Positions 2,945 to 19,899 of a stretch of 37,462 bases of DNA are shown here, in pieces (the first letter of the stretch is position 1; every line of letters starts with the position of its first letter). A model generated the notes under the pieces. That model was not told the DNA's origin. It did not search any database and worked only from the letters and a program-made list of their open reading frames with translations. This stretch comes from Candidatus Bathyarchaeota archaeon. GTDB taxonomy: Archaea > Thermoproteota > Bathyarchaeia > Bathyarchaeales > Bathycorpusculaceae. The stretch is taken from positions 1-37,462 of the forward strand of contig JAOZGY010000057.1 of NCBI GenBank assembly GCA_026015145.1. Reading direction: 5' to 3'. The position numbers and the translations under genes were made by a program.

Positions 2945-3720
2945 CCAGATTGCTAGTGTCTGCTCCTCGTTCTTAAGTTATTCTGAGGTTTTTAATAGAT
3001 AAACATAGAGGCGAGACACACAGACAGGCAAAATACACACTCACACTCGGGTATACATAAATAAATACATGTAGAATATGAGAAGGAAAAAGATTAAATT
3101 TTAATCCTTAAATTATCTGATGTAAACGGCGAGATTTTATAGAATATATCGAGATTCTAACAGTCCACCAGTACTACTCTTTACATGGTTTCATCTTTTT
3201 TATTTGGATAAGAAGTTTAAACCTTTCCTGCACAAAAAAACCTTAGCCTAAAACATAAGAAGAATAGGACATTTTTAATGAAATCTTCTTTTCTCTTTAT
3301 TATCAGAGTAAAAAAAGGGGGCTATTAATATAATGTGATATATAATAAGCCACACACACAAAAAGAAACACTCGGAAAATATATGGAAAAACCATGAGAG
3401 AGCTGGCTTTCGGTTCATTGGACAACTAAACTCATTCTAGGACTGGAACTTTCTCGGGATCTCGTTCACTCCTGGAGAGTCCTTGCAGTCACTAACAGTT
3501 TTAAATGCATTTCAAAGAACTCAGAGCTCATCAAACAGCTAAGGATGCTGTGCATAAAAGCTACTCTTAATCTGATACATTTTCCTTGTGCAAATGATCG
3601 GTTTCTCATTATTAGCCAAACTAGAGATTTGATGACGAAGCTGAACAATTAATGCAAAAGTTAAAAGCATCGTTGTCTAAATATGGTTTGTATATCATTA
3701 CTGAAATTACCAATTTTAAG

Positions 3721-3746
3721 TTGGGTCTTCGGGTGACATCTCCACT
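3721..3746 (+). repeat. tRNA-like repeat family, short type-2 copy (5' module only)
   Basis: ttcgggtgacatctccact (3728-3746) is identical over 19 nt to 6009-6027. The upstream ttgggtc resembles gtgggat of the 6000 copy. Confidence 0.6.
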
Positions 3747-3823
3747 GCCCAAACGTAAGTAAATTGACAAATGGCACAACTTTTTAAAGAACATAATATG
3801 CTTCAATTATGGGTGAAGTTTGA

Positions 3824-4033
3824 TTGGTGAAGTGGGAATACAAGGTGGTTCCAATAAAGACTCGGATTCATTCGAGCCACTTTGAAAGTGGTAGTAAACC
3901 GGTAATGGACGACGTTCAGAGTGACATGAACATCTTGGGTAAAGAAGGTTGGGAACTTGTTAGCGTTCAAAACATCAGCCTAAAAGATGATAGGATGTTC
4001 ACGGTTGCTTACCTCAAGAGAGAAAGATATTAA
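3824..4033 (+). CDS. DUF4177-like small protein (69 aa; TTG 3824 or GTG 3827 start)
   Basis: VKWEYKVVPI ... MNILGKEGWELVSV fits the DUF4177 pattern (WEYKVV ... L..lG.eGWELV.v). Confidence 0.6.
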   Translation: MVKWEYKVVPIKTRIHSSHFESGSKPVMDDVQSDMNILGKEGWELVSVQNISLKDDRMFTVAYLKRERY

Positions 4034-4087
4034 ATTTTAATCTTTTGATCATTATCACTTCAAAGCGGGGTAGACTGCTCAAATTCT

Positions 4088-4330
4088 TTAGCCGACTAAT
4101 TCGACTGTTGTTCCTAACGCCTGACCCGGTACTCCTTTCTTGAATTTGACTCTAACAACGCCGTTTTTTCCATGTAAACCTGCGATTTTCCCAATAAACT
4201 TCTTGTTTTTTCCCTTCCAAACCACTTTTTGACCTATGAGGTGTCCTGCCTGAGCTACTAAATCTGCATGGGCAAATTGAATTAGACATTCTCTTGAAGA
4301 TTGTGTTCGGATGCCTATATGATAGTTCAT
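4088..4330 (-). CDS. rpl35ae: ribosomal protein L35Ae (eL33)
   Basis: MNYHIGIRTQSSRECLIQF...LIGQKVVWKGKNKKFIGKIAGLHGKNGVVRVKFKKGVPGQALGTTVELV matches the L35Ae signature (G.I...HG..G.VRa.F...lPg.AiG..v). The start is placed at the internal ATG (4330), because the 26 extra N-terminal residues of the track ORF (to 4408) do not resemble the family. Confidence 0.8.
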   Translation of the reverse strand: MNYHIGIRTQSSRECLIQFAHADLVAQAGHLIGQKVVWKGKNKKFIGKIAGLHGKNGVVRVKFKKGVPGQALGTTVELVG

Positions 4331-4481
4331 TATTCTTCCATAAACTGGTTGGGACAAAACTTTCACCTTTGTAAACTTTACATAATAATACCCCTTGCTT
4401 TTAAACATGTTTCATTTAGCTTTAGCGTTATGCTTGGATCGTGCATGCTCGAGGAAGGGGGGAGGAAATTAAATTTTATCC

Positions 4482-4528
4482 AAAAAATGGGGGTTTGCGG
4501 GTGTTATCTCAAGCTTTCACTTGAGTTA
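4482..4528 (+). repeat. tRNA-like repeat family, diverged copy (5' module plus unrelated hairpin)
   Basis: aaaaaatgggggtttgcgggtgttatctc parallels aaaaaaatgggggggtttgcgagtgatatctc at 8399-8430. It continues into a ctcaag/cttgag 6-bp hairpin instead of the T-loop module. Confidence 0.55.
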
Positions 4529-4638
4529 TCACAGAATTTGCGAGAATGTTTTTTGAATTTAATTTTAACCCCCAACCCACAAACTACCTTTTGAAATGCA
4601 TACAGAATAGAAAGCGTCAAACGTTCAAAAAGAAAATC

Positions 4639-5868
4639 TTACCTGATTTTCCTTAGAGCCTTTTTTGCAGTTTTTCGAACTTCCTCATACTCATCCTCTA
4701 ATGCATGAGTCAATGATTCTTTTGCCCTTGCATCGCGAATCTCGCCAAGAGCCTGCGCTGCAGCCCATCTAATCAAGCGGTTATTATCCTTCAGGGCTTG
4801 AATGAGGGGTTCCACTGCTGGTTTTCCAATCTGTATAAGACCATCAAATGCAACGTTCCCGACGGGTCTCTCTAAATAAAAAGTTTTAGCAGGACTGCCT
4901 ACTAGAGTTAATTTGATTCTGCGCATGCCGCTTCTGGTGTCGCGCAGCACACGTATCGTGTCTTTAATATGTAAAGATTGAATCAGAGGCTCTACCGCAT
5001 GGCGTCCGTATCCGATTATTTCATTCCAATCTTTCTTGAGTGTACCCTCCTTGCCTAAGGACATATTTGCAAATAGATAATAGACTCTCTCGGTAGTATT
5101 TGCGGGATTCCAAGATAGCTTTTTAAGAACCCTCACTGAAGATTTTCGAATACCCCAATTCTGATCTTTTAGAGCTCGTACGAGAGGTTCTATTACCCTT
5201 TCATCGTTCAATGCTCCAAGTGCATCCACTGCAGCTTGTCGAGAATAAACATTTTGTGTTTCATCTTGGAAAACTTGCACAAGAGGTTCTATTGCCCTTT
5301 CATCACCTATACGCTTGAGAACTTTTGCTGCAGGTGCCTGAACCGTCCAATCTTCGTCCTTTAGGAGTTGAATTAATGGCTCTACTGTTGGCTCTCCAAT
5401 GTTTTCAAGTATTTTCCAAACTTCAAAGAATGGGTTTGTTCGTTCGTTTACAAATTTCTCTTTCATAGCCTGGATTAATGGATCTATCGCTGGTTTTCCA
5501 ATTCTCACAAATACTTCGTGTAACTCATCAATCTCTATATGTGATACGTTCTTAAGGGCTGAAATATTTCCAGGTTGTCGTTCCATTATAAAGGCGCGTC
5601 TCCTTTCATAATCCTTCATCGCGTACTCTAAGGCTTGAATCAGAGGATTTACTGCAGGTCCTCCCATTTCCGTTAGATCATCCCACGCCTTCTTAGCCAT
5701 CAAGTAATGCACCTTCTCCGTGTCATTGCCCGCTTTCCAGCCTATCCTGTCAAGGGCAAATGCTGACGACTCTCGGATTTGGTATTTTCTATGCTGCAGA
5801 GCCTCGAGTAACCCCTTTACATCCTTCTTCTGTTCCATTTTCTTGATGTTCGGTCCGAAAATTCCCAT
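4639..5868 (-). CDS. HEAT / PBS-lyase-type repeat protein (409 aa)
   Basis: About seven repeats of the unit (V/I)(E/D/N)PLIQ(A/L)LKD...VR..AA.ALG.I.D.RA, for example VEPLIQALKDNNRLIRWAAAQALGEIRDARAKESL. Confidence 0.8.
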   Translation of the reverse strand: MGIFGPNIKKMEQKKDVKGLLEALQHRKYQIRESSAFALDRIGWKAGNDTEKVHYLMAKKAWDDLTEMGGPAVNPLIQALEYAMKDYERRRAFIMERQPGNISALKNVSHIEIDELHEVFVRIGKPAIDPLIQAMKEKFVNERTNPFFEVWKILENIGEPTVEPLIQLLKDEDWTVQAPAAKVLKRIGDERAIEPLVQVFQDETQNVYSRQAAVDALGALNDERVIEPLVRALKDQNWGIRKSSVRVLKKLSWNPANTTERVYYLFANMSLGKEGTLKKDWNEIIGYGRHAVEPLIQSLHIKDTIRVLRDTRSGMRRIKLTLVGSPAKTFYLERPVGNVAFDGLIQIGKPAVEPLIQALKDNNRLIRWAAAQALGEIRDARAKESLTHALEDEYEEVRKTAKKALRKIR

Positions 5869-5992
5869 TCTATTTATTATCCTCCTTCACAATACTAAAA
5901 AGGCAATCTCCATTATATTTGGTTGAGTTTATAACACTCCTGGGTTAAATCGTTGTATATGATTCATTTGCTGGTTTGGATTAAAAATTATT

Positions 5993-6050
5993 AAAAAAAG
6001 TGGGATTTTTCGGGTGACATCTCCACTCTGGCAAGGATTCAAATCCAGAC
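5993..6050 (+). repeat. tRNA-like repeat family, type-2 copy with degenerate T-loop hairpin
   Basis: The order is an A7 run, gtggg, cgggtgacatctccact (6011-6027), then tctgg-caaggattcaaat-ccaga, where ggattcaaatcc (6035-6046) parallels ggggttcgaatccc of the long copies. It directly abuts the GC-rich katG segment. Confidence 0.7.
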
Positions 6051-6111
6051 TCAAACAGATTTGGGCCGGGTTGCTTACCATATTATCGTCGTTAGCTATC
6101 TCTTGTTACGA

Positions 6112-8328
<2,217 letters not shown>

Positions 8329-8398
8329 TTAAAAGTTAAGTTTCACTGTCTCTTTCAAATTGTGTGATAAATTGTTAAAATTTTATTATATTAATCTG

Positions 8399-8516
8399 AA
8401 AAAAATGGGGGGGTTTGCGAGTGATATCTCCACTTGGTATAGGGTTCGAATCCCACCTCGCCCGCAGCTTATTTTCCAAAATAGAGCACAATTTAGAGTT
8501 ATTTTGGCAAAAAAAG
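8399..8516 (+). repeat. tRNA-like repeat family, long copy B
   Basis: The order is an A7 run, tggggggg, then the 50-nt core at 8417-8466 (47/50 identical to copies C and D), then a tail cttattttccaaaatagagcacaatttagagttattttggcaaaaaaag related to C and D apart from a 4-nt indel. Confidence 0.9.
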
Positions 8517-8693
8517 ATAAACAGAACAATAACCAATGTTTGCGACTGTCTTTTACGGCTCTACTGGCAGGGTTTGGTGTCTCGTAATCCAGTAAAAACA
8601 GAACACCCAGGAAGACCACAATTCACATACGCCATAAATCAGAAGGGAAAAGAAAGGTTATCCTATTGGGATTTGCACTCCATGCAACCATGA
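8415..8693 (+). CDS. possible small winged-helix (PadR/MarR-like) regulator, 92 codons, TTG/GTG start inside repeat B
   Basis: The C-terminal part, NVCDCLLRLYWQGLVSRNPVKTEHPGRPQFTYAINQKGKERLSYW, fits the recognition-helix plus wing pattern L..L...GLV.r......GRP..Y.it.kG.e.L. The N-terminal 17 codons are the repeat core itself, so the gene may be real, a fusion or a remnant. Confidence 0.3.
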   Translation: MRVISPLGIGFESHLARSLFSKIEHNLELFWQKKINRTITNVCDCLLRLYWQGLVSRNPVKTEHPGRPQFTYAINQKGKERLSYWDLHSMQP

Positions 8694-8800
8694 TGAAAAG
8701 GAACGCCTCTAATCTTAGCTACTTTTATCCATCAATTTGGGAACGAATGGCGCATCGTAAAAAGCATAGGGTTGTGGTGTGGTGTAATGAAGAAAAAGGC

Positions 8801-9042
8801 GTTCCCATTTGTTGTACATTCTAAAAGTTCCCATGTTCTTATGTTCCCTATTTATGTGGTTCCCGTGCAGTTCATTGTTCCCTTTTCATGGTCTTTTTTC
8901 CCAAGTTCCCTGTTCCCACCGGAAAACGTATACCGGTACGGTAATACAAGGGATTCAGGGAAGGGGGAAAAAGGGAACATATAAGGGAATAGTGACTTTC
9001 AAGTAGTTTTCGTTCCATGGTTTCCCGCCCGTTCCAGTTCCC
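8801..9042. repeat. dense array of GTTCCC hexamers (iteron-like)
   Basis: Perfect GTTCCC on the + strand starts at 8801, 8827, 8843, 8859, 8877, 8905, 8912 and 9037. GGGAAC (minus orientation) is at 8973. Variants: GTTCCA at 9012 and 9031, TTTCCC at 8897 and 9021, GGGAAT at 8985. A TACCGGTA palindrome lies at 8930-8937. Confidence 0.85.
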
Positions 9043-9433
9043 ATGGGGATAAGGCTTACAATAATGGAAAAGATGGAAAAAGGGCTTTTCTGCTTACTTT
9101 ATATCTTCTTTTCTTCTAGTAGTAGTCTTAGTCGCCCAAATAAACAAACATATTGCTTTATGCAAAAACCATTAACCTATACTTTGAGTCAGAAGAAAAA
9201 TTGGAGTATAAAGAATTCATAAAAAAAGTTAAAAAAACAATTAACCAAACTCATTTTAGACTTTGTAAATATAAATACAAACTAGTTATCTGATTGTAAG
9301 AGTGGAATTCAAAGAGAACTATTGCCTAGAGCTGCGTTTTTAGTTAAGAGAGATTAGATGTGGGATTAGTACAATTGGTTTATGATTATGAAAGTTCAAT
9401 TTGTGTTGACGATTTTTATTGCGAAAACACAAG

Positions 9434-11077
9434 CTAATGAGTTGTGTAAATATATAGTATTTTACTAAAGGTTTCAAGTTCTTTTTTTGATATCCAATTT
9501 TGTTTTTCTAATTCTATTAGTCCTTTCTTAACACCTACGCGCAATCGTTTTTTTAGAAGTATACTGGCTTGAATTCCAGTTTCTGTAATATCTTTTTCGA
9601 GCATAGGATTTCTTTCAATAAGCGGTACTAGCTGATTCAAAAATTTCATTATAGCCTTTGAACGAGATTGAAGTAAAGCTTTCAGTTTTGAAGCACCAAG
9701 GGCTCCCTTCATTTTTGTTAAGAGCCCCATGTCTCCAATCAATGTGGGAGGATATACAATGTATCTTTTTTTGTCGTTTTCTTCGTATCGAGCAAGGTAG
9801 AATGGGAGATAAACCAATACGCGCAACCGACTTTTTCCAGTTATAGTTATTGTGTCGAAAACTTTTGGAAATCCTCTTTTTTTATGAATCATATTCCGAA
9901 TTGAGCTAATTATTTTATTGGTGAGATCTTCTAGTAGGACTATTTCTTGTTTCTTTGTTTTAATTTTGGCATCTCTGGCTGCTTGAAGGCGTGAAAATAT
10001 TTTCCGGATAGATTCGATGTGTTCGTCGCATTTAGCCTTTTGTTGCGCAATTTCAAGTTTCAGAGCATTATCAATTTTCAGCTTTCTTTTGGAGTTTGCT
10101 TCGATTTTTTTGTTGAGAGTTGGCAGTTTCTTCTTTATTCTTTTTAGCTTTAATTTCCATTGGGCTTTTTTATGTATTCTTTTGGAGCGTATTTTTGTTT
10201 CGCATCGTTTTGCTTCTACTTTTAGATATCTAAGAGTTTTTTGTAGCTCAACCTTACTTTCCTGGAGGTTTTGGAGGTTTTTCTTGAATTTTTTGGATTT
10301 TCTAGCAATTTTTTTATTATATTTACTTTGGATTCGCAAGATTTTTTTCTTAACTTTAGGCTTGGTTCTCTCAACTTGTTTTCGATATTTATTTTGAGTT
10401 TCTCTGATTTCTGTTCGAATTTTTTTGATCTTTCGTATAGTAATTAATTTCAGAAGCTTCATGCTATTGTCTAAGTTTTTTATGTCTTGGGCATTTCTTT
10501 TTCCTAGGTTTGAGAGCTGATTAATACTATCTTGGAGTTCAAGGTTTTTTATTGTGGCATCTAAAACTACTTTGTTAGTTAGGTACCTTTTTGCTTTCTT
10601 CATTTCATTAAGATAGGTTTTGAAATCTTCCATGAGAGCGGAGTTTGTCATTAGAGCTTCAATCTTTATTTCCTTCTTGCTGCTGAAATTTTTGAAATAA
10701 TCTTTGTTTCTGATGAGAGTTGCGGTATAAGATTCGGTTGTTTTTTGGTTTTTCTGGAGGTCTTTGTCAAATATTGCAGAGTCGGGTATTGTATCGTAGG
10801 AGAGCGTATGTGAAGCGAGACCGAGTCCGTCAAATATCAAAATTGCCCCTTTAAAGGGAACCAACCAAATAGGATAACATGCTTTAGCTACAAAGACAAG
10901 TTTCTCGTCCATTTTTTTTAAAACACGATTTTCTCCTTTCTTTCTCTCGGATTCAACCAAGTAAAGGATGGCTGCCATTTCCATATTTTTTGTGAAATTT
11001 GTGAATCTTTTAGCAGCCAGCGTGGTGAAGGGTACTATAACCCCTCTTTTTTGTTCTTTGTCTGGATGAATAAGCAT
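9434..11077 (-). CDS. Lys-rich coiled-coil protein of unknown function (547 aa)
   Basis: Long ORF. The N-terminal (about 1-130) and C-terminal (about 400-547) parts look globular. They flank about 270 aa of heptad-like, extremely K/R/Q/E-rich sequence (KIKKIRTEIRETQNKYRKQVERTKPKVKKKILRIQSKYNKKIARKSKKFKKNLQNLQ...). I recognise no catalytic motif. Confidence 0.7.
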   Translation of the reverse strand: MLIHPDKEQKRGVIVPFTTLAAKRFTNFTKNMEMAAILYLVESERKKGENRVLKKMDEKLVFVAKACYPIWLVPFKGAILIFDGLGLASHTLSYDTIPDSAIFDKDLQKNQKTTESYTATLIRNKDYFKNFSSKKEIKIEALMTNSALMEDFKTYLNEMKKAKRYLTNKVVLDATIKNLELQDSINQLSNLGKRNAQDIKNLDNSMKLLKLITIRKIKKIRTEIRETQNKYRKQVERTKPKVKKKILRIQSKYNKKIARKSKKFKKNLQNLQESKVELQKTLRYLKVEAKRCETKIRSKRIHKKAQWKLKLKRIKKKLPTLNKKIEANSKRKLKIDNALKLEIAQQKAKCDEHIESIRKIFSRLQAARDAKIKTKKQEIVLLEDLTNKIISSIRNMIHKKRGFPKVFDTITITGKSRLRVLVYLPFYLARYEENDKKRYIVYPPTLIGDMGLLTKMKGALGASKLKALLQSRSKAIMKFLNQLVPLIERNPMLEKDITETGIQASILLKKRLRVGVKKGLIELEKQNWISKKELETFSKILYIYTTH

Positions 11078-11224
11078 AATGGTTTTTCCTCAGGCAAAGG
11101 TTGTAAGTTTGGCACAGTTAATGATTATGAAATAGGGATTAAGATTCAGATTCTATTTGAACATATAACTGTGATTGGGAACCCTATATTTCGAAGTAGA
11201 AAACACAACCTACAAAATAGAATT

Positions 11225-11340
11225 AAAAAAGGGAAAGTTGTGCGGGTGATATCTCCACTTGGTATGGGGTTCGAATCCCACTTCGCCCGCAGAAAGCTTA
11301 TTTTCTAAAATAAAGCCCAATTATGCGTTATTTTGACAAA
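11225..11340 (+). repeat. tRNA-like repeat family, long copy C
   Basis: aaaaaagggaaagtt, then the core at 11242-11291 (gcgggtgatatctccacttggtatggggttcgaatcccacttcgcccgca), then the tail gaaagcttattttctaaaataaagc... 11242-11316 is identical to 16773-16847. Confidence 0.92.
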
Positions 11341-11362
11341 AAAAGCAAATAAAATAAAAGTG

Positions 11363-12694
11363 TTAGTCCCAGGGTCCAGGCCAATCAGGGAACATGTAGG
11401 TTGCTCCTGCTTCTTCCATAATTTCTTTAGGATATACTGGCACTCTTGCTCCATCTGCCTGCCATTGGAAGAACAGAGCCTGCGTATACCCGGGTCCAAA
11501 CATAAGGTCGTGGGAAGATGTGAACATAAAGCGTGGTGAATCAGTGGTTTCCAAAGCTGTTTCTTCTACAGCTTCGATGACAGCATCAGTTTCTATTGTT
11601 CCAGCTCTCTCGATAGCATCAGGCAAAATATAGCGTACCGTATCATACGCGCCGTGTACCAAAAAAGTTGGTGAATGACCCCACCTGTCAATAAAATCGG
11701 TACGAACTGGCAATGTTTTATTAGTCCATGGGTACCCTGCGACAAACGGGGACACCATAGTGGTTGTACTCCCACACTTTCCATCCGTCCATTCCCAGTA
11801 TTCATTCGCTTGGGCCGTTACGTCGACTCCCCAAACAACGAAGGGTGACTGACGATCATACCACTCTTTAATAGCAAATATGGAATCCTGCGCGCCGATT
11901 AGAGGGATCAATATTTCTGTTCCCGCTGCTTCAGCTGCTGCAAAATAGCTTGTGAAGTCCGTGGTTCCCGTCGTAAATTGACCGCGGTAGACAATGTCAA
12001 AATTGTAGACCTCAGGTAAATAATAATCCAAACCCGCTCTTATGCTCTCAGTCCAAATACGATCCTCAACTAAGTAGGCGATCTTATTAAAGCCAGTATA
12101 TTCTCTTAAAACTACTAAACTATCAAGGATCTCCCTAAAGATTGCTGTTGAGTTTGGTGGGGTGACTCTAAAATAGTATTTATATCTACTATAGTCATCT
12201 AACACACGTTGGGTTAAGGCCTCACCGCCTGCTGCGAGGCTTAAGAAGATTATCTTGTGCTCGGCTATGATGTCCTGCATCATCAGCATGGCGTCGTCTC
12301 TAAAGCCCCCTATTACGTAATCCACCTTATGGAAGGTTATCAACCTCGTTAAAGCGGTGCTTACTTTAATCATGTCCACTATCGGCGCCGCTTCATCAGT
12401 ATCCTCACCAACTATCTCAAGATATCTTCCCAAGACACCGCCTTCAGCATTAACCTGTTCAGCAGCCAACACAGCACCCTCCCAAACATCTTTCCCCCCT
12501 AACTCATCTAAATCGGCACAAACCCCTATCTTGATGGTTTGCGTCTGCTGCGGTTCCTGAGTCAAAAAAACATAAACAGTTCCAGCTACAACAGAAGAAA
12601 CAGCAATCACAGCAACCAATATTATCGAATGAAATTTAGTTAATGCCACAGAATTAAACATAAACCACTTATCCACAAAAACAGTATCAAACAA
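11363..12694 (-). CDS. orphan ABC-type substrate-binding protein, Leu/Ile/Val (LivJ/type-I PBP)-like, membrane anchored (443 aa)
   Basis: An N-terminal TM helix is followed by IKIGVCADLDELGGKDVWEGAVLAAEQVNAEGGVLGRYLEIVGEDT and VDYVIGGFRDD, typical of the branched-chain amino-acid binding-protein fold. No permease or ATPase genes are adjacent. Confidence 0.75.
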   Translation of the reverse strand: MFDTVFVDKWFMFNSVALTKFHSIILVAVIAVSSVVAGTVYVFLTQEPQQTQTIKIGVCADLDELGGKDVWEGAVLAAEQVNAEGGVLGRYLEIVGEDTDEAAPIVDMIKVSTALTRLITFHKVDYVIGGFRDDAMLMMQDIIAEHKIIFLSLAAGGEALTQRVLDDYSRYKYYFRVTPPNSTAIFREILDSLVVLREYTGFNKIAYLVEDRIWTESIRAGLDYYLPEVYNFDIVYRGQFTTGTTDFTSYFAAAEAAGTEILIPLIGAQDSIFAIKEWYDRQSPFVVWGVDVTAQANEYWEWTDGKCGSTTTMVSPFVAGYPWTNKTLPVRTDFIDRWGHSPTFLVHGAYDTVRYILPDAIERAGTIETDAVIEAVEETALETTDSPRFMFTSSHDLMFGPGYTQALFFQWQADGARVPVYPKEIMEEAGATYMFPDWPGPWD

Positions 12695-12810
12695 AACAAA
12701 TATAACACTTTTTAAAAATTAACTTTCGAAAACAACTATACTAATAAACCTCAAACATCAAAGATTAGAAAATTATTTAGTGATTCACATGCTATATAGA
12801 GTGAGCAGCC

Positions 12811-15800
12811 TTGCAAAACAATAACCAATCCGTACCTCTTCTTAACAAAGCGAAAGAGTTGGAGAAGAAGTATAAGTGGCTTGAGGCTGCAGATTTTTAC
12901 GAGAAAGCTTTAGATTTAGCGTTGAAGATGGAAGATTTCTTGAAAACTGCTAAACTTAGCGAACAGCTTGCCTTCTGCTTTTTTAGAGCTGCTCTACAAG
13001 CCCAGACAAACGAGGAATTCAAAAGAAGAATGAAACTGACTATCAGGACCTATGAAAAGGCGGTTAAACTTTTTGAGATGGTTGAGAAAGATGGAAAAAG
13101 AGCAAAAATCAACCATTCTAAAGCTATGGTCGCCTATTCAAGTTTTTGGCTTGCAAAAAATCCATCGAAAAAGAAGGATTTGCTTGATGAGTGGTGGAAA
13201 CTTGAAATTGAGGCTTTAAAGGATTACGAGGAAGCCGGTGACCATCTTTCCGTTGGGAGGATATGTAACAATCTCTCGGAAGGTTCCGCACAAAGAATAA
13301 ATTTTGCATCAGATTGGCTGAAACTGGAGAAGAGGATAGAAGAGGGATTTAGTTATGGAGAGAAAGCCATCATGGTATTGGCGAAGGTGGGAGAGGAACA
13401 TGAACTGGCCACTGCCTATTGTTGGACGAGCTTTTGCTACGTAGTGGCTCTGTGGTATAGGGTGATGGAAGATAGGAGAGGGGAATTCGGCAAAAAATGC
13501 CTAAACTATTCAAGGAAGGCTTTGACACTTTCCAAAAAGACTGGAGATGCATATCTAATTGGTCATTCAAATATGTCAGCAGGACTTGCAGAATGGGGTT
13601 TCGTTGGCAATCCTTTTTCTGCGTTAGATTTTTTTAAGGAGGCTCGAAAACATGGTGTAATCGCAAAGGATAATTTTTTGATCGGCATAGCGAGTGTATG
13701 GATGACTTTCAACAATAATCATGTTATGAATCTAGAAGAAGACCCGGATAAACAAAGAGAAGGATTCAAAAAATCCAAGAAATTTGCTCAGGATGCTATC
13801 CACCATTTCCGGATAGTCGTAGGTTATCCCTACTTCCCCTTTGCTTATGATGTGTATTCTAGGAGCATTATGTCGTTGGCATTAATTGAAACTAATCCTG
13901 TAGTAAAAAGCAATCTTTTGGAAAAAGCGGTTAAAGTGGCGCGGAAGGGTTTAGAAGATAGTGAGCGATGGGTGTATACAAATCCTTCCATTATGATTCT
14001 CGAGGTACTCACATTTTTCGTAGTTGTTTTATATAGGCTTTCCGAAATGGAGATGAAAATCAACGAGAAAAAGCAACTCCTTGAAGAAGCTTCAAAATAT
14101 ACTGAAAAAGAGTTCAACATTCGACAACGATTAAGTCCTTTTGATTACTGGAATAACAGTCATAACCTAAAAAACAGAGCATTGATACAAGCTAAGCTAG
14201 CTAAAATAGAAACAAAACAAGAGAGGAAACAGAAACTACTCCAGAAAGCGGTTTCAGCCATGGAAGAGTGTTTGAAACTAGTTGAAAAAGATATAAAGGA
14301 TATTCCTCCAGGTTGGAAAAACCGTTATGTTGGATCATACTATTGTTGGTACGGAGGAACCTTGGAACAATTATACCTGTTAACCAAGGATAAAAAGATT
14401 TTAAATAGAGCAATAGAAGTCTACCAGAATGCCATCGAAACATATAGCAAAGTAGAGTTGAAGACCCGTGAGGCAGAGTCCCACTGGCAGATAGCTAAAC
14501 TCCAAAACCTCCTCGGAGATAACCTAGAAGCTGCTCGCAACTACGAATCAGCAGCCGAAAACTACAAGCTTGCAGCAGAAAAAATTCCACAATTAAAAGA
14601 ATTCTATCAAGACTATTCAGATTACATGCAGGCTTGGAGTCAAATAGAACAAGCAAGACATAATCACTCAATTGAGGAATACGAAAAAGCTAAAGAATAT
14701 TATGAAAAAGCTGCGAGGCTTCATGAAACATGCGAACCTTGGAGTTATCTAGCTTCTAACTATTTGGCTTGGTCCATTGTTGAAGAAGCTGAAGGCTTAA
14801 GCAGAAAAGAAAACACTCAACAAGCAAAAGAAGCATTCCAAAGAGCCTATCAACATTTTGGAGAATCTGAAAAATCCATCAAACAAAAGATCAAGGAAAT
14901 CACATCCATAGACGAAAAAGAAATGACTCAAAGACTGCTCAAGACTTCGGATCTTAGATCTAAATATTGTCAAGCAAGAGTCCTACTTGAAGAAGCAAAA
15001 TTGTTGGATAGAAAAGGCAAATATCTACAAAGCTCAAAAAACTATGGAAAAGCAGCAGAAAAAATTGAAAGTATCATTGAACAGATAGATACTGAATCAG
15101 AACGCAAAGAACTAAAAATAATTGCGGTTTTATGTCGCGCGTGGCAAAAAATGGCAAACGCAGAAGAAACAACATCCTCACAAGCATACTTGGAAGCTGC
15201 ACAACTCTTTGATCAAGCAAAAGAACTAAGCGTCACTAAAAAAACAAGTCTTTGGGCACTAGGGAATAGCAGTTTCTGTAGAGGATTGGCCGCTGAGAAC
15301 AAGTTTCAGAACACTCTCGAGAAATCATTTAACTCAAAAGCTAATAAATACATGAAAAATGCCTCAAGTTATTACAAAGAAGCAGGTTTTCATAATGCTT
15401 ATGAGTTTGCTAAGGCAACACAGCGACTTTTCGATGCATATTTGTATATGAATAGTGCTGAAGATGAAGTTGATCCTGAGAAAAAAACAAAATTCTATCA
15501 ACTCTCTGAGCAGCTATTGCAGATTGCTGCAGGCTCTTTTATAAAAGCTAAACAACCCGAGAAGACAAGTGAAGTTCAAAGAATCTTATCTACTGTCCGA
15601 GAAGAAAAGGCTTTGGCCACCTCTTTAAATCAGGTTATGCGAGCACCTTCTATTGCTTCAAGTACTTTGTCTTTTGTAGCTCCTACTCCAACCAGTGAAG
15701 TATCAGCAGGATTGGAACAATTTGAACATGCTAATATCCAAGCTAATCTAGTCACACATGTTAAGCAAGTTAAAGTTAGGGAATCTTTCTGTTTGAGCGT

Positions 15801-16749
15801 AGAGTTTGTTAATGCGGGTAAAGAGCCTGCATTATTGACTAGGATTGAAGAGCTTATTCCCAGAGATTTTGTTGTAGTTAAGAAACCTGAAATCTATCGT
15901 CTAGAAGATACTTGCCTAAATATGAAAGGAAAACAGCTCGCACCCTTAAAATTAGTGGAAGCAAAACTTGTTCTTCAACCATCAAGAAAAGGAGTCTATC
16001 AACTAAAACCAAAAGTTCACTATTTAAATGAAATTGGACAAAAGAAATCTCTCATATTGAAGTCTATTGAGATCAAGGTTGAAGAAGTTGTTCTTGCTGA
16101 TCGTGTCTCTACTGGAACCAAAGAGCTAGACTCACTTTTGCTAGGAGGCATCCCAGAAAACTATGCAATAGTATTAACTGGACCTCCAAACGATGAAAGA
16201 GAACAAATAATAAAAAACTTCCTAAAAGCAGGAACCAAACAAAACCAACCCACCTTCTACGTCACCACACAAGCAACCAGCCCAAACAACCTACTAGAAA
16301 AATCTAGCCTTCACCTTTTCTTGTGCAACCCCAAACCAAAAACTCAAGTCCCAAACCGTCCAAACATCACCAAGCTAAAAGGAAAAACAAACCTCACAAA
16401 CCTAAACATAGCCCTATTCAAAACCTACCGGAACATAACCTCAAATAAATTGAGGATCTGCAACGAGATTGTTTCTGATGTTCTCCTGGATTATGGGGCG
16501 AAAACAACTAGAAAGTGGATTGCTGAAATGATCACTGATCTAACATCAAAAGGCTTTACAATACTAGCTGTGATTAATCCTTTGATGCATACTTCAGAGG
16601 AATTAAATGTTGTTTTGGACCTATTTGATGGAGAAATCAGAATCACTCAAACTAAAGATGCTTTGGAATGTAAGAAGTTTATACAAGTAGAGAAACTAAG
16701 AAACCAAGACTACATAAAAAATCCAATATGCCTAACAAAACAAGCATAG
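12811..16749 (+). CDS. 1312-aa multidomain protein: long TPR-like helical repeat region, beta-sandwich-like segment, C-terminal KaiC/RecA-like domain with degenerate Walker A
   Basis: About 950 aa of helical-hairpin repeats (AxxYYEKA / AxxNYExAAExY motifs). A segment VKVRESFCLSVEFVNAGKEPALL...LKPKVHYLNEIGQKKSLILKSIEIKV looks like a CARDB/Ig-type sandwich. The tail STGTKELDSLLLGGIPENYAIVLTGPPNDEREQ aligns to the KaiC/RadA-like G...LD.lLgGGip.gs..litGppGtGKT, but GTGKT is replaced by NDERE. The first in-frame start is TTG at 12811. Confidence 0.8.
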   Translation: MQNNNQSVPLLNKAKELEKKYKWLEAADFYEKALDLALKMEDFLKTAKLSEQLAFCFFRAALQAQTNEEFKRRMKLTIRTYEKAVKLFEMVEKDGKRAKINHSKAMVAYSSFWLAKNPSKKKDLLDEWWKLEIEALKDYEEAGDHLSVGRICNNLSEGSAQRINFASDWLKLEKRIEEGFSYGEKAIMVLAKVGEEHELATAYCWTSFCYVVALWYRVMEDRRGEFGKKCLNYSRKALTLSKKTGDAYLIGHSNMSAGLAEWGFVGNPFSALDFFKEARKHGVIAKDNFLIGIASVWMTFNNNHVMNLEEDPDKQREGFKKSKKFAQDAIHHFRIVVGYPYFPFAYDVYSRSIMSLALIETNPVVKSNLLEKAVKVARKGLEDSERWVYTNPSIMILEVLTFFVVVLYRLSEMEMKINEKKQLLEEASKYTEKEFNIRQRLSPFDYWNNSHNLKNRALIQAKLAKIETKQERKQKLLQKAVSAMEECLKLVEKDIKDIPPGWKNRYVGSYYCWYGGTLEQLYLLTKDKKILNRAIEVYQNAIETYSKVELKTREAESHWQIAKLQNLLGDNLEAARNYESAAENYKLAAEKIPQLKEFYQDYSDYMQAWSQIEQARHNHSIEEYEKAKEYYEKAARLHETCEPWSYLASNYLAWSIVEEAEGLSRKENTQQAKEAFQRAYQHFGESEKSIKQKIKEITSIDEKEMTQRLLKTSDLRSKYCQARVLLEEAKLLDRKGKYLQSSKNYGKAAEKIESIIEQIDTESERKELKIIAVLCRAWQKMANAEETTSSQAYLEAAQLFDQAKELSVTKKTSLWALGNSSFCRGLAAENKFQNTLEKSFNSKANKYMKNASSYYKEAGFHNAYEFAKATQRLFDAYLYMNSAEDEVDPEKKTKFYQLSEQLLQIAAGSFIKAKQPEKTSEVQRILSTVREEKALATSLNQVMRAPSIASSTLSFVAPTPTSEVSAGLEQFEHANIQANLVTHVKQVKVRESFCLSVEFVNAGKEPALLTRIEELIPRDFVVVKKPEIYRLEDTCLNMKGKQLAPLKLVEAKLVLQPSRKGVYQLKPKVHYLNEIGQKKSLILKSIEIKVEEVVLADRVSTGTKELDSLLLGGIPENYAIVLTGPPNDEREQIIKNFLKAGTKQNQPTFYVTTQATSPNNLLEKSSLHLFLCNPKPKTQVPNRPNITKLKGKTNLTNLNIALFKTYRNITSNKLRICNEIVSDVLLDYGAKTTRKWIAEMITDLTSKGFTILAVINPLMHTSEELNVVLDLFDGEIRITQTKDALECKKFIQVEKLRNQDYIKNPICLTKQA

Positions 16750-16755
16750 AATAAG

Positions 16756-16871
16756 AAAAAAGGGAAAGTTAAGCGGGTGATATCTCCACTTGGTATGGGG
16801 TTCGAATCCCACTTCGCCCGCAGAAAGCTTATTTTCTAAAATAAAGCAAAATTAAAAGTTATTTTAGCAAA
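16756..16871 (+). repeat. tRNA-like repeat family, long copy D
   Basis: It begins 7 nt after the stop of the 1312-aa gene. The core is at 16773-16822. Over 92 nt it is identical to copy C except for 2 nt (aa vs gt just 5' of the core). Confidence 0.92.
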
Positions 16872-17176
16872 AATGGTTAAAATTAGAAATAAAAAAAGGA
16901 AAAAGGGAATTCGTAAAAAAGGGAATGTTGTTTACTGATCTTCTTTACTTTATAGGTACTTTCTCGAATGGCAATAACTCCGATTTTAAACCTGATTGCG
17001 TATTCATTCCGGCAAATGCTACTTTCAACGCTTCTAAGTTTTCGGTCTTCCAAGTACACCAAAGTAATTTTCGATCATGAGCAAGCCAGAAATCTTGTAA
17101 CTCTATGAAGTAATCTAACAAGTTTATGAAAAACAGTTAAAGCCAAAAATCACCTATCCAATAGAGGTGTTACTAA

Positions 17177-18553
17177 ATGGATGATGAAATTGATCTCGTA
17201 ATTATTGGTGGAGGAACAGGTGTTTTTGCTGCTTCCTTAGCTACGAAGATGGGTTTGAAAGTTGTTATTTTGGAGAACAGAAGAATCGGAGGGGTCTGTT
17301 TAAATTGGGGTGGTCTTGCAACCAAAACCCTAACCTCAACTGTAGAGTTATTTAGAAATGTGAAAAAAGCAAGTAATAACGGAATAAATGGCTCTTTGTC
17401 TCTTGATTGGAAAGATATGAAAAAATACAAAGACACAATTTGTTCTCGAATGTCTAAGATGCCTGAGATTCTATTAAAAAAAGCTGGAGTAAGAATCATA
17501 AAAGGAAATGGAGAAATCCTGACTCCAACAAAAGTAAAAGTAACCTCCGATATTTAAGAAGAGGTCATAAAAACTAGAAACATTTTGATTGCATCAGGGT
17601 CACAACCTATAACAATACCTGGAGTTCAACTAAAAGATCCAATACTAGACAGTGATCAATTACTAGAACTGGAAAATCCTCCAAAGAGCTTGCTAATTAT
17701 TGGAGGAGGAGTCATCGGATTAGAATTTGCAACAATCTTCAATCTTCTAAATACCAAAGTAACAATTGTTGAAATGCTTCCAACATTATTGCCTAATGAA
17801 GAACCCGAAATGGGAGAATTTCTATTAAGGCACCTAAAAAAAGAGGGAATGGAGGTTTTTGTCAACAGCAAAGTAACTCAAGTCACACAAATCAACGATA
17901 AGGTAGATGTGAAAATACTCACCCCAAAGGAAGAGATAACAAAGAATGTGGATAAAGTCTTGATGGCAGTGGGTAGAGGACCAAATATCAATAGAAAACA
18001 CCTAGAAACTCTAGGAGTAAAGACAAGCAAAAGAGGAATATTAGTTGATGACAAAATGCAGACCTCAGTAAAAACGATTTGGGCCACAGGGGATGCTGTG
18101 GATCCTCATCTTCTCGCAAACGTTGCAATAAGAGAAGCAAAAGTAGCCGTAGCTAACATCGCAGGGGAGAAAACAAAAATGGACTATGGTCTTATTCCCC
18201 GATGTGTTTTCACAATACCCGAGACCGCAGCAATTGGATTAACCGAAAAACAAGCAAAAGATCAAGGATTAGATATCAAAAGTGTTAAAATTAATTTTGG
18301 TGCTCAAAACTTTCGGGCGTACGCATCAAACAAAACAGAGGGCTTCATAAAAATTATCATTCTTGATGATGGAAAGATTGTGGGAGCAACAATAGTAGGC
18401 GCTTCCGCAAGCGATTTGATATCAGAATTTACCTTAGCAATAAAAAATAAAATGACAGCAAAAGAAATGAGTGATCTAGTTTACGTCCACCCATCATTTT
18501 CAGAAGTCTTACAAGTAGCACTCGAAAAAATACTAGGAATAGCCCTAGTATAA
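17177..18553 (+). pseudogene. dihydrolipoamide dehydrogenase-like FAD/NAD(P) disulfide-oxidoreductase family gene interrupted by one in-frame TAA
   Basis: Track ORFs 17177-17557 and 17585-18553 are in the same frame (offset 408 nt). The only interruption is TAA at 17555-17557 (...KVKVTSDI*EEVIKTRNILIASGSQPITIPG...). Family motifs are present: GGGTGVFAA (FAD), IIGGGVIGLEFA (NAD), TGDA, and C-terminal HPSFSE. The redox motif reads GGVCLNWGGLATK, so the second Cys of the canonical CxxxxC is Gly. Confidence 0.75.
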
Positions 18554-18604
18554 AGCTAATAAAAAAAGAGAGGAGTATTATCTTTCTTATTTTATAAAGA
18601 GTGT

Positions 18605-18931
18605 TTATTTTTTCAGCAGTTTTCCTAAAGCTTCGCCTATTATAAAAAGTCCTATAAGAATAATCACAGTCAAGAATAGATCCAATGTATACCCTAAAAC
18701 TCCAGCAACACCAAGAGCTAAAGCAACTAAACCGACGAAAAGACTAAACTTACTTACTTTAATGCCCATCTGGGATCTAGCAAGATTTAGACCTAAGAGG
18801 ATTAATCCAACACCCAGAGCTATATATGCTCCAGTTTCAATCTCGTAAACTGCTCCGATATACCATCCAATGCCGATAAGTATTATAAAAAGTCCCCAAG
18901 CCAAACTATCTAAGGTTCTGTTATCAGCCAT
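18605..18931 (-). CDS. small integral membrane protein (108 aa from ATG 18931)
   Basis: Three to four hydrophobic helices. ggaggg lies about 6 nt upstream of the ATG. The track ORF starts 18 nt further upstream at a TTG. Confidence 0.5.
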   Translation of the reverse strand: MADNRTLDSLAWGLFIILIGIGWYIGAVYEIETGAYIALGVGLILLGLNLARSQMGIKVSKFSLFVGLVALALGVAGVLGYTLDLFLTVIILIGLFIIGEALGKLLKK

Positions 18932-19073
18932 CAAACTTCCCTCCTTCAAATTCCTGATTACCGATGAATTATAGGCTATTCTATTTTTATGATTTATGGA
19001 AGCATTGTCAAGACAAAAATTACCAAAATGTTATATCTAAAGAACACCAAACCAAACTCTTAAGGTATAAAAA

Positions 19074-19691
19074 ATGAGCTTAGAATCAAACAAAACCCTT
19101 GGCGGCGTAGGAGCCATTCTACTAGCCATCCCAATTGCAAATCTCGTCGGAATAATACTAGTCCTAATAGCAATGAAAGGAATGGCAGACCACTACCAAG
19201 ACGACGACATATTCAAAAACGCGCTCTACGGTTTCATATTTGGAATCATCGGCGTAGTTGCACTAATTGCTGTAGGAGTAATGTTTTTTGTTACCTTCTC
19301 AGCTACCATACCATCCACAACCTATCCTCTTGCAGGACTAACAATATTCATACTAGCTTTTGTCACAATGTACATATTCTCACTAATCGGAGCAATATTT
19401 TACAGAAAAGCATTCAACAGTCTTTCAGAAAAATCAAATGAAAAAATGTTTGAAACAGCAGGACTACTCCTGTTAATAGGTGCGATAATCCCAGTAATTG
19501 GAGAAATTCTACGTTTTATTGCATGGATACTTGCAGCAGTCGGATTTTTCTCAATTAGAGTTCCAGTACAAGCAACAATGGGTGAACCTGTCACAAAAAT
19601 TTCTGGCGAAAACAAATTTTGCCAAAATTGTGGAGCTAAAAACAAAAGTGAAGCATCCTTTTGTGAGAAATGTGGCCAGAAATTCAATTGA
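19074..19691 (+). CDS. DUF996-like membrane protein with C-terminal zinc ribbon (205 aa)
   Basis: Multi-TM N-terminal part, then FCQNCGAKNKSEASFCEKCGQKF (CxxC...CxxC). Confidence 0.65.
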   Translation: MSLESNKTLGGVGAILLAIPIANLVGIILVLIAMKGMADHYQDDDIFKNALYGFIFGIIGVVALIAVGVMFFVTFSATIPSTTYPLAGLTIFILAFVTMYIFSLIGAIFYRKAFNSLSEKSNEKMFETAGLLLLIGAIIPVIGEILRFIAWILAAVGFFSIRVPVQATMGEPVTKISGENKFCQNCGAKNKSEASFCEKCGQKFN

Positions 19692-19754
19692 AAACAACCA
19701 TTAAACTTGTTACCCATTTTTTTTAAAAAAAAATAAATGATATTGCTAGAAGAC

Positions 19755-19810
19755 AAAAAAAGAGGAGATGTTTTGGGGTGATATTTTCAATGGTTACGAA
19801 TTCATTTTTA
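19755..19810 (+). repeat. possible degenerate copy of the tRNA-like repeat
   Basis: aaaaaaagaggagatgttttggggtgatattttcaatggttacgaattcattttta keeps the same order as the long copies: A-run, G-rich spacer, ggtgatat, tggt, then acgaattc in place of ttcgaatc. The match is weak. Confidence 0.3.
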
Positions 19811-19899
19811 GATTTAAAAAATACCGGATAGCTTGATTAATCCCATCCATAATATATAGTTTTAAATCAAGAAGATCTTCGAAATTGAGTTGTATTTTC

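Follow-up and report, generated by a model that had tools for sequence, protein, structure and literature searches.

The subject of this analysis is a family of short repeats in contig JAOZGY010000057.1 of a Candidatus Bathyarchaeota archaeon (assembly GCA_026015145.1), the whole of which, 37,462 nucleotides, was analysed and is referred to below as the window. Six clear copies and two decayed ones are found between 3.7 and 19.8 kb, all on the same strand and every one of them between open reading frames (ORFs), which is far above chance. A copy consists of a module of ~45 nt (an A-run, a G-run and TTGCGGGTGAYATCTCCACT) that occurs class-wide in Bathyarchaeia and is fused at the T-loop with the 3′-terminal part of a tRNA. 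An earlier note on this DNA had preferred to regard the repeats as a family of 60–110 nt tRNA-like small RNAs and had offered scars resembling attachment (att) sites as the alternative; the evidence outlined here argues for the latter. The copies, all on the + strand, are the following:

3695–3748, +: truncated copy that retains the 3′ half of the module alone (GGGTGACATCTCCACT at 3731–3746), without A-run and without T-loop
4477–4533, +: variant copy with A-run, G-run and TTTGCGGGTG; in place of the T-arm a 13-6-13 inverted repeat, GTGTTATCTCAAG (4501–4513), spacer CTTTCA, CTTGAGTTATCAC (4520–4532)
5982–6046, +: copy with a module comprising A-run (5993–5999), TCGGGTGACATCTCCACT (6010–6027) and T-loop-like GGATTCAAATCC (6035–6046); homology to other contexts stops at 6046
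8399–8550, +: long copy B, with module (8399–8434), T-loop (8445–8451) and part identical to tRNA-Arg(CCU) (8442–8464), then the downstream flank of tRNA-Arg
11225–11362, +: long copy C, with module (11225–11259), T-loop (11270–11276) and tRNA-Arg part (11267–11289), then flank to 11362
16756–16900, +: long copy D, with module (16756–16790), T-loop (16801–16807) and tRNA-Arg part (16798–16820), then flank
16914–16970, +: probable extra copy, weak and decayed, with A-run, GGG and GTTG..TGAT..TCT..ACTT..TCGAAT
19755–19810, +: decayed distal copy, with which the array ends; beyond it lies the core genome, with the PNP gene at 19885, an ABC transporter and further housekeeping genes

That these are members of one same-strand intergenic family, as the earlier note had it, is borne out in two ways. 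The 16-mer GGGTGAYATCTCCACT is present with at most one mismatch at 3731, 6012, 8419, 11244 and 16775 and with three mismatches at 19776, always on the + strand, where 0.13 matches would be expected by chance. Searching with a profile that was derived from relatives also yields 3695–3748, 5982–6056, 8384–8478, 11209–11304 and 16745–16835 and, weakly, 4477–4510. The 50-nt core said to be shared by the long copies is indeed identical at 11242 and 16773, with agreement at 47/50 positions at 8417. An A-run, however, which had been ascribed to every copy, is found in 6/7 copies and is absent from the one at 3721. The copy at 4482 is a genuine variant because the same variant recurs twice in another locus, L120.

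A module joined to the end of a tRNA

When 185,579 species genomes were scanned with GGGTGAYATCTCCACT, at least 119 stretches were obtained, and among the matches listed about 45 were from Bathyarchaeia or metagenome-assembled genomes (MAGs) of Bathyarchaeota; loci taken from this genome collection are 8-kb chunks. The bacterial matches among those listed have the 16-mer alone, without the rest of the module, which is enriched in Bathyarchaeia MAGs and is there composed of A-run, G-run, (T/A/G)TGC, the 16-mer, 5–8 variable bases and then GGGTTCAAATCCC. The arm can be written as A-run, G-run, TTGC and GGGTGAYATCTCCACT; its core is close to a palindrome, GGAGAYRTCTCC, and in some copies a perfect one, a symmetry that suggests a dimeric DNA-binding site. 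Three loci with the module (L026, L029 and L076) are on contigs binned as MAGs of Sulfotelmatobacter, Methanoperedens and Gemmatimonadales; either these are mis-binned Bathyarchaeia contigs or the host range is wider.

Past the T-loop the sequence is specific for the locus and is the 3′ end of a tRNA. For example, a full tRNA-Asn lies 1.8 kb upstream in L032 on the same strand, and its 3′ end recurs as TTCGAGTCCTATCGGCGGCGC at the end of both copies; the copy in L016 closes with GGGGGTTCAAATCCCCCCCAGTCCA, with which a full tRNA-Ala located 3.6 kb upstream, again on the same strand, also ends. The tail in L140 is the tRNA-Pro 3′ end including CCA, and that in L141 is the tRNA-Asn end plus 40 nt of flank. 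In all four loci a co-oriented direct repeat of a tRNA segment is thus present downstream of the full tRNA. The earlier note had proposed to look outside the window for the parent of the window's own tails, and a metagenome scan with the tail located it as tRNA-Arg(CCU) in related low-GC contigs; it is only in these related contigs that the parent is found, the window's contig stopping before the head of the array. In L124, the ~90 nt that come after tRNA-Arg(CCU) can be aligned with the tails of all three long copies (B, C and D). The hairpin and the T-runs of the long copies are therefore what normally flanks the tRNA-Arg gene on its 3′ side; the T-runs had been interpreted as terminators in the earlier note. 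The left edge of tRNA identity differs among the junctions, from tRNA position ~45 to 58.

The earlier note had drawn the 50-nt core as an acceptor-like stem, a middle hairpin and a T hairpin, and this fold is indeed the minimum free energy structure of the 50-mer (z = −3.0). Support across 33 members taken from numerous genomes, however, is lacking. Imposed on their alignment, the helices pair in 61.3% of the cells versus 60.6% in column shuffles, 87 of 500 shuffles being equal (by helix: acceptor-like stem 65%, middle hairpin 42%, T hairpin 83%), and members with tails other than tRNA-Arg fold like shuffled sequence (z between −1.1 and +0.5). The acceptor-like stem is accordingly a local coincidence: GCGGGTGA of the module happens to match the acceptor strand at the 3′ side of a single tRNA, whereas the helices in general pair no better than shuffles and the non-Arg members do not fold. 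The T stem is weak in the window copies, with three good pairs and no more, because the copy is a chimera in which the left limit of tRNA identity varies and the 5′ strand of the T stem is not tRNA-derived. ARAGORN detects 0 tRNA genes in the window; Rfam has no match in it at gathering thresholds, and at E ≤ 10 a long copy gives only noise, with the tRNA model silent. The copies form no cloverleaf (D arm, anticodon arm and, directly beside the acceptor stem, a T stem of 5 bp), nor do they have a structure backed by covariation across homologues as in a small-RNA family. It is therefore very unlikely that the copies are tRNA-like small RNAs which start at an A-rich promoter, end at a T-run and act via acceptor-like stem and T-loop, even though the 50-nt core folds as drawn and the module sequence is kept in many genomes: the tail switches with the neighbouring tRNA, and with it the stem appears or disappears.

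Other functions at the level of RNA, protein or replication were considered and rejected. A leader peptide was suggested by the NTG before CGGGTGA, which varies between ATG, GTG and TTG and follows a G-run resembling a Shine–Dalgarno sequence; in L040 and L119, however, the short ORF ends before the conserved T-loop, which keeps no frame. A tRNA, split tRNA or permuted tRNA finds no support from ARAGORN or Rfam, and full parent tRNAs exist elsewhere. Origin recognition boxes of a replication origin do not fit copies that are kilobases apart and co-oriented, with the orc1/cdc6 gene absent, and a terminator in a 3′ untranslated region or a riboswitch in a 5′ untranslated region does not fit the lack of an orientation bias toward either neighbouring gene.

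Units between the copies

The copies separate six or seven units of 0.7–5.4 kb, each with one to three genes:

3749–4476, unit 1: DUF4177 gene (3824–4033, +) and ribosomal L35Ae-like gene (4088–4408, −)
4534–5981, unit 2: HEAT-repeat gene (4639–5868, −)
6047–8383, unit 3: GC-rich katG gene (6112–8283, −)
8551–11224, unit 4: coiled-coil gene (9434–11077, −), plus ~0.9 kb without a called gene
11363–16755, unit 5: periplasmic-binding-protein gene (11363–12694, −) and gene for a 1312-aa TPR/KaiC-like ATPase (12811–16749, +)
16971–19754, unit 6: split pyridine-nucleotide-disulphide oxidoreductase (17177–17557 and 17585–18553, +), DUF6790 gene (−) and DUF996/zinc-ribbon gene (19074–19691, +)

In line with the earlier note, the units differ in composition, the GC content of katG being 0.52–0.56 as compared with ~0.36 elsewhere in the window. 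Neither in the units of the window nor in those inspected in relatives are there virus or replication genes. Cargo in other loci includes catalase, P-type ATPase, NosD-like proteins and PQQ proteins. From the sequence itself the window would be assigned to Bathyarchaeia on three grounds: where the module occurs, how the relatives of katG are labelled, and the 67–72% nucleotide identity of its core genes to L100 and L108.

At 16/16 loci with at least two copies all copies are co-oriented (21 extra copies, no exception), with a spacing of 0.6–5.5 kb (median 1.8 kb). The genes between them show no such preference: the gene upstream of a copy is on the same strand in 31 cases and on the opposite strand in 21, the gene downstream in 23 and 26 cases, respectively.

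The units themselves change places. The HEAT unit (window 4490–6046) differs at 3 positions in 1,528 bp (99.8% identity) from its counterparts on two JGI contigs, L120 and L123, and its neighbours differ in all three: the order is katG/HEAT/L35Ae in the window, ABC2/HEAT/L35Ae in L123 and ABC2/HEAT/PQQ in L120, so that three arrangements of near-identical units are found inside one population. The ABC2 unit is also present in L030 (85% identity), again flanked by copies, and the katG unit is present in three arrays, namely in the window, in L140 beside tRNA-Pro (88.8%) and in L141 (84.3%), where tRNA-Asn heads the array. The earlier note had proposed a genome-wide search for synteny breakpoints at the copies, and in relatives homology does break there, at the symmetric stem-loop: in every comparison its edge is the 3′ edge of the T-loop, as at window 6046 (...GGATTCAAATCC) versus L120 and on the left side of the katG and ABC2 units. 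Likewise, two copies in L134 agree up to GGGTTCGAATC and then diverge.

Several further observations concern single units. L123 (at 2717/2718) is without 77 bp of the window (4416–4492). The missing stretch has the region of the L35Ae start codon on one side and GTTTGCGGG, part of the variant site, on the other; the sequence GTTT stands at both ends of this difference, which is due either to a microhomology deletion or to an assembly artefact. The L35Ae-like gene (Pfam E = 1e-11), which in L123 too is beside the HEAT unit, lies between two copies in an accessory array, an odd place for a ribosomal protein, and may be a paralogue carried as cargo. Proteins 86–93% identical to KatG are encoded in MAGs labelled Bathyarchaeota, Halobacteriota and Nitrospira, and this degree of identity points to one katG lineage that has recently spread over phyla or domains. 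The 1312-aa protein is composed of TPR repeats and a C-terminal KaiC/RecA-like ATPase domain, and its gene forms a divergent pair with that of the periplasmic-binding protein in the same unit. The oxidoreductase of the last unit is encoded by two neighbouring ORFs, one for the N-terminal FAD part (126 aa) and one for the remainder (322 aa), which is probably a frameshifted or interrupted gene.

A candidate integrase and how it would act

Among the ORFs of the window there is no recombinase, and no integrase remnant is found in the window at E ≤ 0.01. In relatives the search for an integrase, also proposed in the earlier note, was successful in that members of a tyrosine-integrase family were found beside modules. 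A Pfam census of 117 ORFs neighbouring modules revealed no enriched recombinase family, fragments of the integrase being detected only by a motif screen combined with a profile of the family. In 388 kb of module-bearing DNA the motif screen gave one clear tyrosine-recombinase match, in L022, where 18 nt separate the end of the integrase gene from a tRNA-Glu fragment adjoining a reversed module. The family of this protein has 1,205 members at E ≤ 1e-5, those named being from Bathyarchaeota or Thermoproteota. It belongs to PF00589, has kept the catalytic-type motifs ARxGE, KG, HxxRHW, LGH and a C-terminal Y, and ends characteristically with ...IYRKRK. The nearest solved structures are archaeal XerA proteins (E ~1e-5), and full-length viral members, such as that of L166 (2368–3708, 447 aa), have 447–495 aa and an N-terminal zinc ribbon.

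Further loci were found by tblastn, by the family profile and by scans of IMG/VR, in which the commonest 17-mer gave only chance matches and variant patterns had to be used. A layout that recurs in L022, L158/L166, L174 (partial module), L114 and L134 consists of the module, a hairpin, 20–110 nt (often a piece of a tRNA) and the integrase gene with its 3′ end facing the module. L158/L166 is the contig of a head-tailed virus with a portal gene, and its integrase is 45% identical to the MAG family. In L132 and L083 the layout is that of attL, i.e., a full tRNA and, after it, what is left of an integrase gene in convergent orientation, and in L140 only the last codons of the integrase (IFRKRK*) are left beside the module. 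There is also a mirrored configuration (L142–144 and L169), with a core that corresponds to the 5′ part of a tRNA in reverse complement and an integrase co-oriented with a full tRNA. An attP inside the integrase gene, as in SSV, was considered and rejected, since the stop codon of the L158 integrase is 60 nt before the module.

Some details of these loci deserve mention. The integrase copies of the mirrored type (L142 2415–3064, L143 10001–10637, L144 and L169 3001–3861) are 18–65 nt upstream of tRNA-Glu(CTC) or tRNA-Ser(GCT). Many database members of the family have just 100–200 aa (fragmentary gene calls), and because the upstream frame in L143 has a stop codon, many chromosomal copies may be pseudogenes. 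In L083 the tRNA at ~6095–6213 (+) is class-II-looking, ends with CCA, has an apparent intron and was missed by ARAGORN; the convergent integrase remnant is 66 nt downstream of it. IMG/VR contigs tend to end at the integrase stop codon (L167, L168, L170 and L171) or at the module (L147 and L153), which suggests trimming of proviruses or assembly breaks at repeated att sequences. In the window, copies C and D have past the tRNA-Arg part an AT-rich hairpin (11297–11315 and 16828–16846), with counterparts in B (8469–8487) and L124, whose reverse strand reads LYFRK-stop. This resembles the C-terminus ...(I/L)(Y/F)RKRK-stop of the integrase family, clearly kept in L140, L132 and L134, and could be the last remnant of a deleted integrase or a chance occurrence in AT-rich DNA.

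Taken together, the copies are very probably DNA-level att junctions of a family of integrative elements that target the T-loop of tRNA genes, in which case integrase-less units follow one another in tandem in the window. What is observed directly, and supports this reading, is that the copies are chimeras, that their tails have parent tRNAs, that the copies share one orientation, that homology breaks at the T-loop, that units are shared between contexts and that integrase genes adjoin modules in relatives. The reading goes beyond the att-like scars at tRNA 3′ parts proposed in the earlier note by adding the parent tRNA, the position of the crossover, the mobility of the cassettes and a candidate integrase. 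In the proposed mechanism attP would have the order module, crossover hairpin (usually the T-arm), tRNA piece and integrase gene with its 3′ end toward the module, the module being the attP arm that adjoins the core. The tyrosine integrase would exchange strands inside the 7-nt T-loop, with the symmetric flanks of the T stem as core sites. A symmetric T stem and a 7-nt T-loop as core sites and overlap are the accepted rationale for tRNA genes as targets (PMC8371274), and a crossover in the T-loop has been demonstrated for the phage Ms6 (PMC1762012). Integration would rebuild the tRNA, and the far end of the insert would retain the module together with the 3′ piece of the tRNA that had been displaced. 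Successive insertions would stack units head to tail, which is why all junctions would be co-oriented regardless of the strand of the cargo. From this we infer catalysis by this integrase at these sites and circular intermediates; most likely it is an integrase acting in trans that moves the units in the window, removes them and changes their order.

It should be noted, however, that several findings weigh against this interpretation. Two mismatches lie close together in the module of the HEAT unit, which is otherwise 99.8% identical, and the crossover is therefore not fixed to a single base. The core of the 4482 copy does not come from a tRNA, which means that the HEAT unit has a site of another kind on one of its sides. 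The link between integrase and module is adjacency in about seven loci (L022, L158/L166, L174, L114, L134, L132 and L083), most integrase copies being fragments, and the window, which is the entire contig, has neither the parent tRNA-Arg nor an integrase or integrase remnant. An excision product or circular form was not observed. The inverted repeat with 6-bp spacer in the 4482 variant has the architecture of a dif site; hijacking of XerA/dif was rejected, since dif from P. abyssi (PMC2958812), the one dif sequence compared, cannot be aligned in register.

The junctions could also be static scars, the units being decayed proviruses or plasmids that once had an integrase and were reshuffled by homologous recombination between the 45–150 bp repeats, with no mobilisation in trans. 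Integrase remnants of a few codons are indeed present beside modules in L134, L132 and L140, homologous recombination could now and then occur between repeats of this length, and several copies in the window are decayed. But homology stops at the T-loop rather than at variable points of the repeats, units 99.8% identical are found in three arrangements within one population, and the units in the window and those inspected in relatives are one- to three-gene cargo without virus or replication genes. We therefore consider static scars improbable. The reading as att junctions can also be carried further. There may be a class-wide, integron-like platform for gene capture at tRNA T-loops in Bathyarchaeia, whose integrase-less cassettes of one gene each (such as those with katG, catalase, P-type ATPase or ABC transporters), bounded by module and T-arm, would be actively excised, passed between strains and species and re-inserted at many tRNA genes by a dedicated zinc-ribbon tyrosine integrase supplied in trans from viruses or resident elements. 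This generalisation is tentative, and we would not yet favour it.

Bathyarchaeia are abundant uncultured archaea of sediments and soils, and their accessory genes are thought to have been laterally acquired. To our knowledge no vehicle for this transfer has been described. Literature searches yielded no description of the module nor of att sites in Bathyarchaeia; a survey of Bathyarchaeia viruses mentions integrases only (PMC10848311), and in an account of Bathyarchaeia genomic islands with laterally acquired genes no mechanism of transfer is named beyond one provirus (PMC11697101). The 45-nt module next to a tRNA fragment is a searchable signature of gene entry in Bathyarchaeia. It could be used in mapping flexible islands in MAGs, in explaining contig breaks, in linking viruses to hosts via shared attP arms and, for genetics, as a lead to an archaeal integrase/att pair with relaxed tRNA specificity. 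The cargo includes oxidative-stress genes with 86–93% protein identity to those in MAGs labelled Halobacteriota and Nitrospira. In annotation, such loci should not be labelled tRNA pseudogenes or novel non-coding RNAs.

Relation to known systems

Cis-mobilisable elements (CIMEs) and satellites are att-bounded DNA without a recombinase of their own, which rely on the integrase of a related or helper element. The units described here are likewise att-bounded and recombinase-less; unlike those elements they are much smaller and arrayed, and their mobilisation in trans is something that we infer. The tycheposons of Prochlorococcus (bioRxiv 10.1101/2020.12.28.424599) are similar in being tRNA-anchored islands in which successive integrations are split by partial tRNAs, in their niche-adaptive cargo and in gain and loss at the strain level. 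Tycheposons, however, have their own integrase and usually a replication module, whereas the units here are cargo only (0.6–5.5 kb) and in an archaeal host; none of the units in the window has an integrase, with or without a replication module.

With integrons and with clusters of attC sites lacking integrases (CALINs) (PMC9668308) the array has in common the co-oriented short sites, the mostly single-gene cassettes, often without a nearby integrase, and the shuffling between genomes. It is nevertheless extremely unlikely that the window is a canonical integron or CALIN with attC sites recombined by IntI. The sites here carry a tRNA 3′ end in a T-arm chimera and not the R″-L″...L′-R′ palindrome of attC, and inspection of the alignment shows that their GTTCRAA core does not fit GTTRRRY. 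The arrays are headed by tRNA genes and not by IntI/attI, an attI/Pc platform is missing, cargo ORFs lie on either strand without bias, and the associated recombinase is of another family, XerA-like with an N-terminal zinc ribbon. The published archaeal integrons have canonical attC sites, and tRNA is never mentioned (PMC9668308).

The closest correspondence is with tRNA-targeting elements of the tyrosine-integrase type, as exemplified by Ms6 (PMC1762012) and reviewed for archaea (PMC8371274), in which the att core is a segment of the tRNA and the core site a stem with a 7-nt loop. As in the Islander concept (PMC4383910), the tRNA is restored, a displaced direct 3′ fragment lies at the far end and the integrase is beside attP. 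Different from these elements are an arm of ~45 bp that is kept over an archaeal class, a tRNA target that varies (Arg, Ala, Asn, Pro, Ser-like), the mirrored configuration with the reverse complement of the tRNA 5′ part, and the fact that most units are without integrase. The chemistry is thus ordinary, and what is new is the class-wide arm, the relaxed choice of tRNA and the integrase-less single-gene units.

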